Shown: one piece after another, positions 3,840 through 33,310 of the stretch | How positions within the stretch are numbered: the stretch's first letter is position 1 | Layout of the letters: each line of letters opens with the position of its first letter | Source: a virus | IMG/VR virus record: IMGVR_UViG_3300031218_000007 | Direction: 5' to 3' (one strand) | Length of the DNA: 33,703 nt | The notes under the pieces: model-generated | Told to the model about the DNA's origin: nothing | What the model saw: the letters and a program-made list of their open reading frames with translations, nothing else | Databases searched by the model: none | Position numbers and translations under genes: made by a program

Positions 3840-4636
3840 GCGCGGAAACAAAGGCCGGCAAGATCGCCCCCGCGCTGATTGCTATTATGCGCGAAATCTC
3901 AGCCATTGATAAGGGCGGATACAACCAGCAACAGAAGTTCAAATTTCGTGGTATTGAGCAAGTGCTCAACTGCCTAAACGGCGTTTTCAAAACTCATGGC
4001 GTAGTTATTCTGACAGACGTGTTAGCTCACAAAGTAAGCGAATTTAAAACAAAGCACGGCACGTCTGGATATCACCACCTGACAGACGTTCGATTTCGAT
4101 TTATGGCTGAGGACGGCTCAGAGGTGGCAATGACATCGATCGGTGAAGCGATGGACTACGGCGACAAGGGCGCATCAAAAACGCTCTCAATTGCGCTCAA
4201 ATATGCGCTTGTCAATATGTTCCTAATTCCGACTGAGGAAATGGCAAAGGACGATCCTGACGCCACGACTCACGAGGTGGCAAAGTCGCCTGCGTCAAAG
4301 CCAACCGCCCCGCACCCCGCAACCATACCGAAGACGCCCGCAGAAAAAGCCGAGGCATGGGCGGCCAAGCGTGCCGAGCTGAAATGGTTTGAGATTACGA
4401 GTCCGCTGGCAACGCCCGCGAAGTGGAAAGGCAAGCAGCTCTCAGACATTGCCAGCGACGGCGACATTAAGAGCCTACAGGCAATCAAGACATTCTTCGG
4501 CAAGTCAGAAAGCGCTGACACTCCTGCGCTCACCGGGCTGCTCAAAAAGCTCGACATGGCTTTAACTGAGGCCAAGTCCAACGAGGTGCCGACAGCTACC
4601 GACCCGCAAGGCAAAGAGGTCGATGCCCCGTATTAG
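3836..4636 (+). CDS. erf: Erf-family single-strand annealing protein
   Basis: QQKFKFRGIEQV...GEAMDYGDKGASKTLSIALKYALVNMFLIPT fits the Erf family core. The GTG start overlaps the upstream stop (GTGA). Confidence 0.75.
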   Translation: MSAETKAGKIAPALIAIMREISAIDKGGYNQQQKFKFRGIEQVLNCLNGVFKTHGVVILTDVLAHKVSEFKTKHGTSGYHHLTDVRFRFMAEDGSEVAMTSIGEAMDYGDKGASKTLSIALKYALVNMFLIPTEEMAKDDPDATTHEVAKSPASKPTAPHPATIPKTPAEKAEAWAAKRAELKWFEITSPLATPAKWKGKQLSDIASDGDIKSLQAIKTFFGKSESADTPALTGLLKKLDMALTEAKSNEVPTATDPQGKEVDAPY

Positions 4637-4889: not shown

Positions 4890-5225
4890 ATGAAAATAAA
4901 AGAGCACATAAAGGAAATCATCAACCTCATCGCCAGTTCAATTATTGACGGAGATTACGAAGTTGTCCAGTTTACAGATCACTCAATAAAAATTGAAATT
5001 GACGAATCGAAATTTGAAATATGGACAGCTAACGGTGCTGAATACTTAGATTTTTGGGAATCTAAGGGTATGTTTGGCGAGGCGTTTGGCGACGAGTCAA
5101 CGCGCAAGAAAATATGGGATTCGCTCGAATCTCACATACAGCTGCACCGCGCAACGACACTAAAGGACGAAAAGCTGGCAACTATTGCGAAGCTGCAAGC
5201 TGAACTCTCCGACCTCACCACATAA
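4890..5225 (+). CDS. Hypothetical protein (AT-rich gene)
   Basis: 111-aa ORF immediately after the (CA)12 tract. Confidence 0.55.
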   Translation: MKIKEHIKEIINLIASSIIDGDYEVVQFTDHSIKIEIDESKFEIWTANGAEYLDFWESKGMFGEAFGDESTRKKIWDSLESHIQLHRATTLKDEKLATIAKLQAELSDLTT

Positions 5226-5233
5226 GGCACATA

Positions 5234-6115
5234 ATGAAAAAACCACACGAAATCACGATCCCCGAAATCGACGAAAGCGCACCGCTCGCCCTATTTAATG
5301 GCGACCGGCTGAAACTGGAGATCGATAAGATGGAGCTAGAAATTAACTCCCTTGTCCTCGATCCAACCAACCCCGCAGAGCACAAACACTATGGCAGCAT
5401 CAGTCTAAAGATCGGCAAGTTCTTCGCTGCCATTGACCGAGCTGGAAAGTCGCTAGTCGATCCGCTCAAACAGGAAGCTAAAAAGGTTGACGCTCAGCGC
5501 AGCATTGCAAAGAGCCGAGGCGCAGAGCTCAAGGCTGACTTCCTGTTCCCGCGGACGCAATACGACGCCGAAGTCGCAGCACACGCCAAAGCGATCACGG
5601 ACGCGCTGGAGCTGATGCAGAACGGGCACCACCGCGTCGGAGAGTTTCGGACTACAACGCTTGCCGAGTGGGACGCGCATCTCGCAGCGATCAACGCCGT
5701 CGAGCTGTCGGAGTCGTTCTTTGGCGATCGCCTAGCCGACGCTCGTGAGCTGCAAGGCACGGCCATCGAAATGAACACGGCACGCCGCGCTAAGTTTATC
5801 GAAGATCAAGCCGCACTGGAGGCCGGACGCGCCGCCCTCAAGGTGCAGCAGGACGCCGAGGCAGCAAAGCGCCATGCTGAGCGCGTAGCGGCGCAGGAAA
5901 AGGCTAAGGGTGATGCCTCGCCCGCAAGGCCGCAAGAGGCAGCGAATCCTTTGTCACTGAGAGAGTGGGAATCAAGTATGGAATTACTCGTAAAAAATGC
6001 AAAGAATAATATTTACGGGCATCTTGTAGCTTACGGAATGCCCAAAGAAAGCGCAATTAAGTTCATCGACGCGATCGCCGATGGACTTACTGAGCACCTG
6101 AAAATCGTAGCTTAA
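5234..6115 (+). CDS. Hypothetical coiled-coil protein
   Basis: 293-aa ORF with an Ala/Glu/Lys-rich central helical region. Sits next to the recombination genes. Confidence 0.6.
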   Translation: MKKPHEITIPEIDESAPLALFNGDRLKLEIDKMELEINSLVLDPTNPAEHKHYGSISLKIGKFFAAIDRAGKSLVDPLKQEAKKVDAQRSIAKSRGAELKADFLFPRTQYDAEVAAHAKAITDALELMQNGHHRVGEFRTTTLAEWDAHLAAINAVELSESFFGDRLADARELQGTAIEMNTARRAKFIEDQAALEAGRAALKVQQDAEAAKRHAERVAAQEKAKGDASPARPQEAANPLSLREWESSMELLVKNAKNNIYGHLVAYGMPKESAIKFIDAIADGLTEHLKIVA

Positions 6116-31955: not shown

Positions 31956-32348
31956 TTAAAAGAGGCATACGCCGTTTAAGTGGTCAAGCTCGCGCTGGAA
32001 TACGATGGCAGGAAGGCCGACTAACTTCTTGTCTTTGCTCTTACCTTGTTCGTCAATGTAGCGGACTTCGACGATCTTAGCGCGGCGCACTGTCGTAGTG
32101 CGCCCAGGGAAACTAAGGCAACCCTCCTTGGATGGCGTAGATCCGGTCTCACTAATAATCTCGGGATTGATAACCATGCCGTGCTGCCAAACAAACCAGC
32201 GCTTATTATGTCCGACTTGGTTTGCGGCCAATCCGACGCCCTTTTGCTCCCACATAAGTTTGGCTGCCTCTTTGTAGAGCTTGCGCGTTTCGTCAATATC
32301 CTCGACCTTGCAGCTGCGGGTTCTTAGGTATTTCGGATCTAGTTTCAT
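31956..32348 (-). CDS. def: Peptide deformylase, short phage type, with Arg in place of the first HEXXH histidine
   Basis: Motif 1 (GVGLAANQVG) and motif 2 (EGCLSFPG) are intact. Motif 3 reads QRELDHLNG instead of QHExDH (CGC codon at 31992-31994). The protein ends right after motif 3. Confidence 0.8.
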   Translation of the reverse strand: MKLDPKYLRTRSCKVEDIDETRKLYKEAAKLMWEQKGVGLAANQVGHNKRWFVWQHGMVINPEIISETGSTPSKEGCLSFPGRTTTVRRAKIVEVRYIDEQGKSKDKKLVGLPAIVFQRELDHLNGVCLF

Positions 32349-32664
32349 GTTTGTCGTGGTTGTCGTGTTCGTGTGAAAGTGTCCCCGCTTGCCTTATTGA
32401 GTTGCTGCACGGCGGGAGCGCGCACATCGCCGAAAGGCTCGGCCTTACCCTTAACATGCTTCGGGCTTCGATTCACTTTATTTTACGACCGTCTGGTCAT
32501 GGCATGGCAAAGTGTCCACCAACCGCGATCCCCCGCACTTCCTCGCGGTGTACTGCATATAGGACTATCAGACCCTTCGGGGGGCTGCTGGTGGGAGCAA
32601 ACGCAGACGGCGCGGTGTGCGCAGAGGGAAACAAAAACCTCGTCTGTGAATGCCCGTAAAATAG

Positions 32665-32699
32665 TGGAACTGGAGGGAATCGAACCCTGATGCAGCCCC
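32665..32699 (-). ncRNA. tmRNA/tRNA-Ala-like acceptor-stem plus T-arm minihelix
   Basis: Minus strand: GGGGCTG-CATC-AGGG-TTCGATT-CCCT-C-CAGTTCC-A. It has a T-loop consensus, a 7-bp acceptor stem with G3.U and G4.U, and discriminator A. There is no D arm or anticodon arm. Confidence 0.55.
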
Positions 32700-32725
32700 T
32701 ATGTGATAAAGAACAATTTAATCAA

Positions 32726-32748
32726 TAGTATATCCACGAGGCTCCACC
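32726..32748. repeat. Inverted repeat arm (pairs with 32936-32958)
   Basis: 23 positions against the other arm: 20 Watson-Crick pairs, 2 G.U pairs and 1 mismatch. Confidence 0.85.
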
Positions 32749-32935
32749 TACTTACGTCGTCAACTGCTGGAGTGCTGGCAATTGTCTTTCGACTCGCTCG
32801 TCATATCCAGATACCTCCTTTTATGCCAATGCGTCCATTGGGCGAACCTGACTCTTTTCAACTCCGTGCTGTTCAATCTTTGTAACGAACCAGCGGTGCT
32901 TGATCGTGAATGTCTCCACGTCGTAACCTGTGGCC

Positions 32936-32958
32936 GGTGAAGCCTCTCGGATATACTA
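32936..32958. repeat. Inverted repeat arm (pairs with 32726-32748)
   Basis: Minus strand TAGTATATCCGAGAGGCTTCACC pairs with GGTGGAGCCTCGTGGATATACTA, 187 nt apart. Confidence 0.85.
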
Positions 32959-33023
32959 ATAACTGGTAAAAGAACGGTGCCGTCTCTCCGGCTGTCACCC
33001 CTGTCTACGCTTGAGGTTTTGCG

Positions 33024-33046
33024 GCGTCAAGTCCAGCCCTTGACGC
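33024..33046. promoter_or_regulatory. Perfect palindrome GCGTCAAG-N7-CTTGACGC (operator-like, or an RNA hairpin)
   Basis: 8-bp arms, each carrying a TTGAC element, in opposite orientation. Confidence 0.5.
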
Positions 33047-33085
33047 GGGCTCCTGACGGTGTGAGCCGTCAGGCGAGGGGAAGTG

Positions 33086-33310
33086 TTAAATTAAGACGCC
33101 ATTACTATACACTTTTACACTTTCAATGTTAGTGCCTTTATTTTTAGCAAACCGAATCGCAGCGCGTTTGCTTGAAAATGTATGTTTTAGAGTTTTGCAC
33201 ATTTCCAGTGTGGTAAATAGTGGCGTCATGGTCTTGCGGTGCATTGACTGCGCAGCTGCAAGGGCGTCGGATTTTTTAACTTCTGAGAGGGCTGTATATT
33301 TGTTTTTCAT
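33086..33310 (-). CDS. Hypothetical protein (AT-rich gene)
   Basis: ATG at 33310 (MKNKYTALSEV...) inside track ORF 33086-33370. It follows a (CA)8 tract and a leader homologous to 2429-2509. Confidence 0.5.
   Translation of the reverse strand: MKNKYTALSEVKKSDALAAAQSMHRKTMTPLFTTLEMCKTLKHTFSSKRAAIRFAKNKGTNIESVKVYSNGVLI

Follow-up and report, generated by a model that had tools for sequence, protein, structure and literature searches.

A probable tmRNA pseudogene in a recombination-prone accessory locus of a small phage genome

The tmRNA normally presents its D-loop analogue and helix P2 together with the partner protein SmpB, and jakobid mitochondria retain tmRNAs that are devoid of the mRNA-like part. 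Minihelices with a G3:U70 pair are charged by AlaRS in vitro and minihelices also serve as RNase P substrates. Small mobile modules of phages include the MPME elements, ultra-small mobile elements of mycobacteriophages, and the promoter-early stem-loops (PeSLs) of T4-type phages, reportedly described by Arbiol and co-workers in 2010 as mobile regulatory cassettes flanking shuffled genes. About 2.3% of phage genomes encode a tmRNA, and prophage genomes carrying ssrA fragments are also on record (PMC9004378).

The locus compared here with these systems lies in IMG/VR record IMGVR_UViG_3300031218_000007, whose entire analyzed stretch of 33,703 nucleotides is termed the window and corresponds to a phage genome of ~33.7 kb that is probably circular. 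A gene-free, non-coding block of 737 nt (32349-33085) was located between the peptide deformylase gene def (31956-32348, minus strand; Pfam PF01327, E = 6e-32; phrog_2890), an optional cassette that forms the downstream border, and an AT-rich 74-aa accessory gene (33086-33310, minus strand) that forms the upstream border and is regarded as a "moron," i.e., an inserted extra gene. On its upstream side the accessory locus is preceded by a conserved 80-aa gene and a promoter-like region that is likewise conserved. Mapping of twelve relatives by BLAST revealed that each module of the block was present or absent independently of the other modules, while neighboring genes and DNA of the relatives were 88-95% identical to the window. 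An assembly artifact is excluded, since five independent contigs, drawn from JGI and ENA assemblies, agree at 100% identity over the block. As judged from these alignments, the block is a patchwork of pieces gained and lost separately and not a single large new RNA. It very probably makes up the non-coding content of a hypervariable accessory locus, and the verdict on it, held with high confidence, is that of a tmRNA pseudogene within a recombination-prone accessory locus, ordinary in kind.

The tRNA-like minihelix noticed within the block in a preliminary description is real and descends from a non-coding RNA gene, namely tmRNA. The Rfam tmRNA model (RF00023) aligned to 32699-32662 as acceptor stem plus T-arm with 20.9 bits (E = 3e-6; gathering score 47), covering model positions 1-374 with the middle deleted. 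In this 38-nt stump of a tmRNA (ssrA) gene (32662-32699, minus strand), the 5' acceptor strand GGGGCTG runs into the beginning of the D-loop analogue, which is joined to the T-arm, the 3' acceptor strand CAGTTCC, and ACTA. Its tRNA-like domain has a 7-bp acceptor stem in which every position is paired, G3:U70 included (G1-C72, G2-C71, G3-U70, A73) and a T-arm whose loop is the intact GGGTTCGATTCCC. The tag reading frame, the pseudoknots, and helix P2 are missing and ARAGORN made no call on the stump, nor did it find a tmRNA in the window.

At exactly the site of the stump, in the same orientation and with shared flanks, the tmRNA gene is complete (381 nt) in two relatives, L260 and L261. In L260, positions 1278-1658 scored 88 bits on RF00023 (E = 1e-34; gathering score 47), compared to the sub-threshold 20.9 bits of the stump, and ARAGORN placed a tmRNA with the tag GNSNVVSFFSGLFAEKIAA* at 1278-1658 in both relatives. 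The window aligned to the tmRNA flanks over 180 nt comprising the tmRNA 3' end and the downstream leader (96% identity) and over 37 nt across the motif GTTCTTT and the tmRNA 5' end (97% identity). Of the 381 nt of the tmRNA, 343 are gone from the window. Agreement with the 5' side extends over 29 nt, from GTTCTTT through GGGGCTGCATCAGG, and with the 3' side over 27 nt back from TTTTACGGGC, minus two substitutions; the two matches overlap at AGG[A/G]TTCGATT, which constitutes the crossover. The two halves of the minihelix are thus the two ends of the complete gene of L260 and L261, save one junction base and two substitutions (CAGCTCC to CAGTTCC, and CCA to CTA within ACCA to ACTA). On the basis of the same site and the shared flanks the stump was filed as a tmRNA pseudogene and not as a functional tmRNA, and these comparisons make it very probable that it is a collapsed tmRNA gene. 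The preliminary description had named an intact protein-coding gene in homologues, decayed in the present copy, as the finding that would overturn its interpretation. Such an intact gene was in spirit encountered, the gene being tmRNA and not protein-coding.

In L268 and L272 just (T)ACCACCA remains of the tmRNA, followed by the same downstream TTTTACGGGC, while L086, L087, L091, L265, L266, L269, and L270 have no tmRNA at all, and the minihelix was absent in every relative without tmRNA. The tmRNA gene therefore occurs in this phage population in four states (intact, collapsed, nearly gone, and gone), which suggests that it is dispensable, or only conditionally useful, to these phages; on the alignments it appears to have been lost more than once. 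The homologies, the junctions, and the distribution of modules among the relatives were read directly from the alignments, and the direction of events was inferred. The ancestor would have carried a complete one-piece tmRNA at the site, as L260 and L261 still do. A 343-nt deletion would then have occurred between two short direct repeats, the D-loop analogue GGATTCGATT near the 5' end and the T-loop GGGTTCGATT, with its ends at the two TTCGATT motifs of the gene. This event would have taken out the pseudoknots, the tag reading frame, and helix P2, and placed the T-arm and 3' acceptor strand directly behind the 5' acceptor strand, with two later substitutions weakening one acceptor pair and destroying the encoded CCA.

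The fully paired acceptor stem with G3-U70, A73, and the intact T-loop could indicate that the stump was retained due to a function, either as an alanine-accepting minihelix, a reduced tmRNA, or an RNase P/RNase Z processing signal at which the operon transcript would be cut upstream of the def leader. On these features the stump could conceivably still be cleaved by RNase P or, after CCA addition, be charged by AlaRS. However, the encoded CCA is now CTA, the D-loop analogue and helix P2 have been lost, sister phages manage entirely without the stump, and pattern scans of IMG/VR retrieved no other such minihelix. The strict minihelix pattern and the tmRNA 5' end both gave empty results in that collection, and the 42 matches to a loose pattern included none with a complementary 3' acceptor strand and hence no minihelix. 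A functional stump is therefore considered improbable and the collapsed gene is presumably functionless. With regard to its subsequent history, two substitutions in 27 nt are not clearly above the ~4% divergence of the flanking DNA, so decay of the stump is not statistically demonstrable. The deletion allele is also abundant, with an identical def protein in 92 blocks of the collection; this abundance fits neutrality and would fit an advantage too.

Other origins for the tRNA-like piece were considered. Integration at ssrA is common, and imprecise excision has been invoked for the ssrA fragments of prophages (PMC9004378), such that the piece might be the attP core or excision scar of a phage integrating into host ssrA. 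This is extremely improbable, since the stump has both the 5' and the 3' gene ends and an attP core would hold the 3' end only, the relatives hold the complete gene including the tag frame, and no integrase family was identified among the ORFs scanned or the Pfam hits of the called genes. The genome does encode an ERF recombinase. A permuted two-piece tmRNA was rejected with the Rfam permuted model reaching only 15.8 bits (E = 0.85) and pairing the 3' strand with GGGTCTGA, a leader sequence also found in relatives without tmRNA. A rearranged tmRNA body, comprising an ORF of the neighboring insertion ending in ...MDALA* and closed by a 23-bp helix, was likewise rejected, as the insertion displayed no similarity to the L260 tmRNA and no Rfam signal. 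The idea of a degenerate tRNA gene gave way to the exact tmRNA match in L260. A tRNA-like sequence sharing the T-arm and 3' acceptor strand with the stump was observed in L097 (IMG/VR). A genome scan for a host tRNA or tmRNA source was uninformative, the 3' 23-mer matching only one Solidesulfovibrio and two Pacearchaeota contigs.

Upstream of the collapsed tmRNA gene lies a lineage-specific insertion of 254 nt (32968-32715), which together with the second copy of an exact 7-nt direct repeat GTTCTTT (32714-32708) spans 32708-32968 on the minus strand. Its junctions were defined by comparison with L260 and it was missing in every relative examined. It would represent a separate event, located 8 nt upstream of the tmRNA 5' end (stump start 32699). 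The 23-bp long-range helix proposed earlier was recovered within it, formed by a left arm TAGTATATCCGAGAGGCTTCACC (32936-32958) and a right arm GGTGGAGCCTCGTGGATATACTA (32726-32748), both on the minus strand, with 20 Watson-Crick pairs, two G-U pairs, and one mismatch (32958-32936 / 32748-32726). It exceeds the longest inverted repeat of 100 dinucleotide shuffles (mean 15.3, maximum 19). The insertion also holds a strong AAGGAGG-N9-ATG followed by a 14-codon ORF, and the own genes of this genome are without Shine-Dalgarno sequences.

The near-perfect inverted repeat of greater than chance length, the exact flanking GTTCTTT, the TA bordering each repeat arm, and a strong Shine-Dalgarno sequence foreign to the style of the genome are consistent with a small non-autonomous MITE-like transposon as opposed to another recombined cassette. 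Nevertheless, the repeat arms are not terminal but set back by 10-11 nt from the ends of the insertion, and the left junction GTTCTTTTACCA is identical to the tmRNA-deleted allele of L272, which suggests recombination between two alleles instead of transposition; recombination could equally have made the GTTCTTT repeat. Furthermore, a second copy was found neither in the window, the phage and plasmid collections, and IMG/VR, nor in a JGI metagenome scan of incomplete coverage, which returned one unrelated inverted repeat and missed the window's own contig. An IMG/VR scan with the repeat arm was empty and a looser one gave more than 119 chance matches, none homologous. Transposition is accordingly a possible but rather doubtful origin. 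No DNA homologue of the insertion was detected in the phages, plasmids, IMG/VR, and JGI metagenomes searched, it had no Rfam match, its translations had no real protein homologue, and it is presumed to be functionless.

The preliminary description had considered the block a candidate for a large ornate RNA resembling GOLLD, ROOL, or the Y-RNA-like RNAs of phages. Its five structures were all present where it had placed them, and they are not parts of one RNA. In favor of the whole block, or an approximately 300-nt unit of insertion plus minihelix, as a single large non-coding RNA, structured and with a tRNA-like module at its 3' end, are the 23-bp helix of more than chance length, two of whose three non-Watson-Crick positions are G-U on the def-sense strand, and a minimum free energy fold of 32975-32656 (-99.8 kcal/mol, z-score -3.6) in which both repeat arms are paired and the minihelix is also formed. 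However, no Rfam family matched: an Rfam 15 search of the whole window gave zero matches at the gathering score, and permissive runs on the block and its parts yielded the tmRNA-type minihelix only. The insertion occurs in no relative and the minihelix in no relative without tmRNA, the minihelix is accounted for by a deletion inside the tmRNA gene, the collections searched contain neither a second copy nor a homologue of the insertion, and the copies in hand are 100% identical, so there is no covariation to be seen. With its parts gained and lost independently, the single-RNA interpretation has already been largely refuted and is very improbable. The block does resemble GOLLD, ROOL, and YrlA in being a long non-coding phage stretch with a tRNA-like module; unlike them, it does not persist as one unit across close relatives, and none of the three surfaced in Rfam searches of the block and its parts, even with E up to 10. 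This disposes of a false lead toward a "new giant phage RNA."

The patchwork of the block was also evaluated for protein-coding content. In agreement with the earlier observation that the block lacks a credible ORF, two plus strand ORFs of 102 and 105 aa had no match in a Pfam search. Both run across an optional 124-nt module described below and cannot exist in relatives without it. A protein-coding pseudogene was rejected given the plus strand ORFs without Pfam match and the open frame of the insertion, which found nothing in a word-index protein search. Exhaustive HMMER searching with this 44-codon frame gave three weak matches, all to proteins of 316 to 1,490 aa and all broken into several matching stretches, which were taken as spurious. 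The leader sequence downstream of the stump also carries 1- and 2-nt indels between relatives.

This leader module of ~147 nt (32509-32655, minus strand) is the sole part of the block that may be a real cis-acting RNA. It was conserved with 79-98% identity in each of the eleven relatives with a contig extending that far, preceding def in the window, L086, L087, L091, L265, and L266, a 67-aa gene in L260, L261, and as a second copy in L086, and a 61-aa gene in L268, L269, L270, and L272; in L086 it occurs twice, around def. It stands ahead of whichever gene fills the next slot. Of 41 predicted pairs in the leader alignment, one was compensatory, and variable columns were concentrated at unpaired (30/68) versus paired (11/82) positions, pointing to a module that is probably structured. 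Leader positions 32655-32509 suit the "long structured def leader" that had been offered as an alternative to a giant RNA, and they had no Rfam match. The distal 8-nt partner GCAGCCCC (32588-32581), assigned earlier to the 5' strand of the minihelix, is indeed fully complementary to GGGGCTGC and belongs instead to the leader module, within which its predicted pairing partner lies; it also occurs in L269, which lacks the minihelix. The leader would act as an RNA in cis and in addition supply short homologies for cassette exchange. That it is a new cis-acting RNA cassette controlling the next accessory gene, and at the same time the recombination joint for swaps, is put forward tentatively and is less probable than not.

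Downstream of the leader, an optional 124-nt module (32508-32385) is flanked by direct copies of the 9-nt repeat GGACACTTT, the first at 32517-32509 and the second at 32384-32376, so that module plus second repeat occupy 32376-32508 on the minus strand. The module was absent in L086, L087, L091, L260, L265, L266, and L268 and present in L269 and L270 without gaps at 97.9% identity, both of these being without def. The def gene was likewise absent in L260, L261, L268, and L272. Directly upstream of the def start codon lies an A/C-rich tract (32349-32375, minus strand) without a Shine-Dalgarno sequence; similar CACACA tracts were found upstream of the genes starting at 33310 (minus strand) and 4890 (plus strand), and A/C-rich CACACA-type tracts also precede the genes of relatives. 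The same locus swaps def, the 67-aa gene, and several inserted accessory genes behind the shared leader module.

The 74-aa accessory gene at the upstream border, which was also called in the identical contigs, has a G+C content of ~0.41-0.47 compared to ~0.57-0.6 nearby and no match in Pfam or PHROG. It was missing in L086, L260, L265, and L268 and was replaced by other genes in L091 and L269. Directly 3' of its stop codon are two 8-bp hairpins (33024-33073, minus strand), both of which had been reported previously and paired perfectly, the first at 33073-33066 / 33059-33052 and the second as the palindrome GCGTCAAG-N7-CTTGACGC (33046-33024). Their sequence was 90-92% conserved in L087, L091, L269, and L270, there behind a different upstream gene, and the two hairpins would move along with the upstream accessory genes. 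Covarying helices conserved as one unit were not observed: hairpin 1 of L269 loses two of its eight pairs and hairpin 2 one of eight without compensating change, and the 23-bp helix is absent from every relative examined. An intrinsic terminator at 33073-33024 was rejected, as hairpin 2 is followed by CGCAAAACC with no T-run and the terminator scan made no call; promoter and terminator scans gave no more sites than in shuffled sequence. The hairpins are followed by a conserved segment (32969-33023, minus strand) ending in the first GTTCTTT (32975-32969). The entire segment aligned to L087, L091, L269, and L270, and ~29-34 nt around its GTTCTTT end (32997-32964) to L260, L261, and L268. In relatives without an accessory gene, the GTTCTTT-proximal part of the segment stands directly after the promoter-like region.

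For scans of phage genomes for tRNA-like modules, it is worth remembering that a tRNA-like minihelix can arise trivially by deletion between two TTCGA motifs of a tmRNA gene. In comparison with known systems, the insertion resembles the MPME of mycobacteriophages and bacterial MITEs in being short, with inverted repeats and a flanking direct repeat, and in occurring in one lineage only, and differs from them in its subterminal repeats and in having no other copy in the collections searched. The leader resembles the PeSLs of T4-type phages as a repeated non-coding element of predicted structure with different genes behind it at cassette joints, and the defining situation of such elements, the same non-coding module before different genes at these joints, was found here. 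In contrast to the PeSLs, the leader has no sequence relationship with them, any promoter in it is putative, and its host genome is small (33.7 kb) and not T4-type. The stump shares with phage one-piece tmRNAs (RF00023) the position, orientation, acceptor stem with G3:U70, and T-arm, and differs from them in the 343 of 381 nt that it lacks and in a 3' end of CTA and not CCA. As in the jakobid mitochondrial tmRNAs, only the tRNA-like part of the tmRNA is left. Those, however, are conserved genes that keep more of the tRNA-like domain, whereas the stump would have arisen by one recent deletion, as an allele of a single phage lineage, the sisters of which carry either the full gene or none.

Comparative analysis of the intergenic block (32349-33085, minus strand) with related phages revealed a set of independent modules. 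Relatives were collected with the def protein and a conserved upstream 80-aa protein as queries and their contigs (L-numbers) compared, while a pattern search with leader-derived DNA added three IMG/VR contigs. Twelve relatives were obtained in all, sharing DNA 79-98% identical to the window, with the 80-aa gene and a promoter-like region conserved at 87-95%. The block was 100% identical in five independent contigs, confirming that its sequence is real and leaving no variation among these copies for a covariation test. The preliminary description had proposed a single large phage non-coding RNA, and its two 8-bp hairpins, 23-bp helix, tRNA-like minihelix, and distal 8-mer were all present; however, BLAST maps and alignments showed that the modules carrying them are independently present or absent in the relatives, such that they do not constitute one unit. 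The region is non-coding, its parts having separate histories, and two plus-strand ORFs of 102 and 105 aa had no Pfam match. The large new RNA was also unsupported by Rfam, which gave zero matches in the window at gathering thresholds.

The minihelix (32699-32662, minus strand) is, from sequence comparison, a collapsed tmRNA (ssrA) gene. ARAGORN identified no tRNA or tmRNA in the window and the sole meaningful match at permissive Rfam thresholds was to the tmRNA model (RF00023), aligned end to end with its entire middle deleted (20.9 bits). In L260 and L261, GTTCTTTATCACATAGGGGCTGCATCAGG runs on into a complete 381-nt tmRNA (Rfam 88 bits, E = 1e-34; ARAGORN tag GNSNVVSFFSGLFAEKIAA*) with the 3' end ...GAGGGTTCGATTCCCTCCAGCTCCACCA followed by TTTTACGGGCATTCACAG, the same downstream sequence as in the window. 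As the flanks match the ends of this tmRNA, the window stump consists of its first 14 nt joined to its last 24 nt with 343 nt missing, and the crossover site was an imperfect direct repeat, AGG[A/G]TTCGATT, made of the D-loop analogue and the T-loop. The stump carries two further substitutions (CAGCTCC to CAGTTCC and CCA to CTA). By score, tag frame, and CCA the stump does not qualify as a functional tmRNA, while descent from a tmRNA was upheld, identifying it as a pseudogene; the tRNA-like resemblance noted beforehand was therefore correct and pointed to this explanation. A residual role, such as an RNase P site or an alanine-accepting minihelix after CCA addition, is unlikely: mutation has altered the CCA, neither the D-loop analogue nor helix P2 remains, and the stump does not occur in sister phages. 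All that is left in L268 and L272 is (T)ACCACCA ahead of the same TTTTACGGGC, on alignment an independent, almost complete tmRNA deletion, and L086, L087, L091, L265, L266, L269, and L270 had no tmRNA trace beyond a possible ACCA or ATCA.

tRNA-like and tmRNA sequences were also observed in other phage contigs. A tRNA-like sequence beginning GGGCTG lies at the end of L097 (IMG/VR 3300032271_000983; 8703-8620, minus strand) and shares its T-arm and 3' acceptor strand with the window stump (GAGGGTTCGATTCCCTCCAGTTCCA); it was not called by ARAGORN, possibly because the contig edge removes its first base. A second phage case of def and tmRNA close together was found in L038 (IMG/VR 3300020473_001965), a 235-kb contig of an unrelated large phage, with a complete tmRNA (tag ANNNYHYEQRLAA*) approximately 1 kb downstream of def (4001-4372 and 5413-5779). 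The IMG/VR contigs L014 and L015, one of 105 kb, encode a CUA-anticodon (amber-reading) tRNA approximately 110 nt downstream of def (4449-4522; labeled tRNA-Pyl by ARAGORN) that may indicate a stop-codon-recoding phage.

The 23-bp helix was confirmed as a non-random feature and lies within a lineage-specific insertion (32968-32715) present in no relative. Its inverted repeat exceeded the longest found in any of 100 dinucleotide-shuffled versions of the block (mean 15.3, maximum 19) and the 32975-32656 interval folded with a z-score of -3.6. Compared to L260, the insertion comprises 254 nt with an exact GTTCTTT direct repeat on both sides and the inverted-repeat arms 10-11 nt inside its ends. 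It holds an AAGGAGG-N9-ATG, out of style for the window genome, that leads into a 14-codon ORF, and several short open frames without homologues in protein searches. No homologue of the insertion was identified in GenBank phages, plasmids, or IMG/VR, nor any copy in one scan of JGI metagenomes, a weak negative as the collection does not cover all samples with the phage, the scan having missed the window's own contig that contains the pattern. A MITE-like element is possible, consistent with the inverted repeat, the 7-nt flanking repeat, and a TA beside each arm, although the arms are not terminal, a second copy was not found in the searched collections, and the left junction (GTTCTTTTACCA) equals that of the tmRNA-deleted allele in L272. 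Based on this shared junction, a foreign cassette brought in by recombination between two alleles is at least as likely.

Upstream of the insertion, the hairpin segment (33091-32961) is present in L087, L091, L269, and L270 after a differing upstream gene and missing where the accessory gene is missing (L086, L260, L265, and L268). Both hairpins are real and neither is followed by a T-run; the L269 copies have lost two pairs from hairpin 1 and one from hairpin 2 (the palindrome), all uncompensated. The adjoining 74-aa gene (33086-33310, minus strand) has a G+C of ~0.41-0.47, much below its surroundings, and no homologue in Pfam or PHROGs. It was probably acquired recently, given that its slot in the relatives holds other small genes or is empty.

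The leader module (32655-32509) was found in all 11 relatives reaching that far and matched no Rfam family. Its alignment (six distinct sequences, 150 columns) was folded by RNAalifold into two domains with 41 predicted pairs; a single pair varies in a compensatory manner (C-G to G-C), and another nine carry one-sided changes (G-C/G-U or A-U/G-U). Variable columns numbered 30 of 68 unpaired versus 11 of 82 paired (Fisher p = 4e-5), a suggestive result only, as the test is biased by a structure derived from the same alignment. The distal 8-mer, GCAGCCCC, is part of the leader. Because its predicted pairing partner lies within the leader and L269 has the 8-mer but no minihelix, the complementarity to the stump is best read as coincidence. 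The gene after the leader varies by phage (def, a 67-aa gene, or a 61-aa gene). L086 carries two leader copies (1782-1926 and 2363-2449), one before def and the other before the 67-aa gene, the second copy being partial and joined to the opening codons of the 61-aa gene via the short homology CCCACCGAG-AGCC in what looks like a fresh cassette-insertion joint. An optional module (32508-32385, 124 nt) follows with GGACACTTT repeats on both sides; most relatives lack it and the two that carry it at 97.9% identity, L269 and L270, lack def. The def gene (31956-32348) is itself an optional cassette, precisely absent in L260, L261, L268, L269, L270, and L272, where the leader passes directly into the 61-aa or 67-aa gene. 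Repeated regulatory cassettes flank shuffled genes in T4-type phages, and the placement of the leader before differing genes appears similar.

The window derives from a JGI metagenome contig (3300035254, Ga0307949_000187, 33,703 bp), and the same sequence recurs in another sample as a 33,718-bp contig with a different start point, such that the genome is probably circular. It encodes the terminase large subunit, portal protein, and major head protein of tailed phages, along with an ERF recombinase and a DNA methylase; the scanned ORFs yielded no integrase. The nearest isolate by terminase was Verrucomicrobia phage P8625 at only 25% identity, followed by weaker matches mostly to Flavobacterium phages. 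Start codons almost never follow a Shine-Dalgarno sequence; A/C-rich tracts, including several that consist purely of CA repeats (cacacacaca), lie ahead of them instead, as upstream of the starts at 4890 (+), 33310 (-), 32348 (-), and 21146 (+), suggesting a host that does not use Shine-Dalgarno-led initiation. Transcription of the locus would start in the conserved region lying downstream of the 80-aa gene and run in the direction of def; this region contains a TTGACA -35-like hexamer and no good -10 hexamer. It was not called in a promoter scan and the host promoter type may differ. The stump and insertion would then be carried passively in the 5' portion of the def transcript, with the leader module as the region's only candidate functional RNA element.

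A survey identified tmRNA genes in 402 of 18,146 phage genomes (2.3%) and also noted fragments of ssrA in prophage genomes (PMC9004378). The region is of low novelty, being a further instance of something known; secondary points of modest interest are the tmRNA allelic series and the common leader module. The window element does not belong to GOLLD, ROOL, or YrlA, and compared to the phage-borne tmRNA genes already known, it is a pseudogene and not a functional tmRNA.
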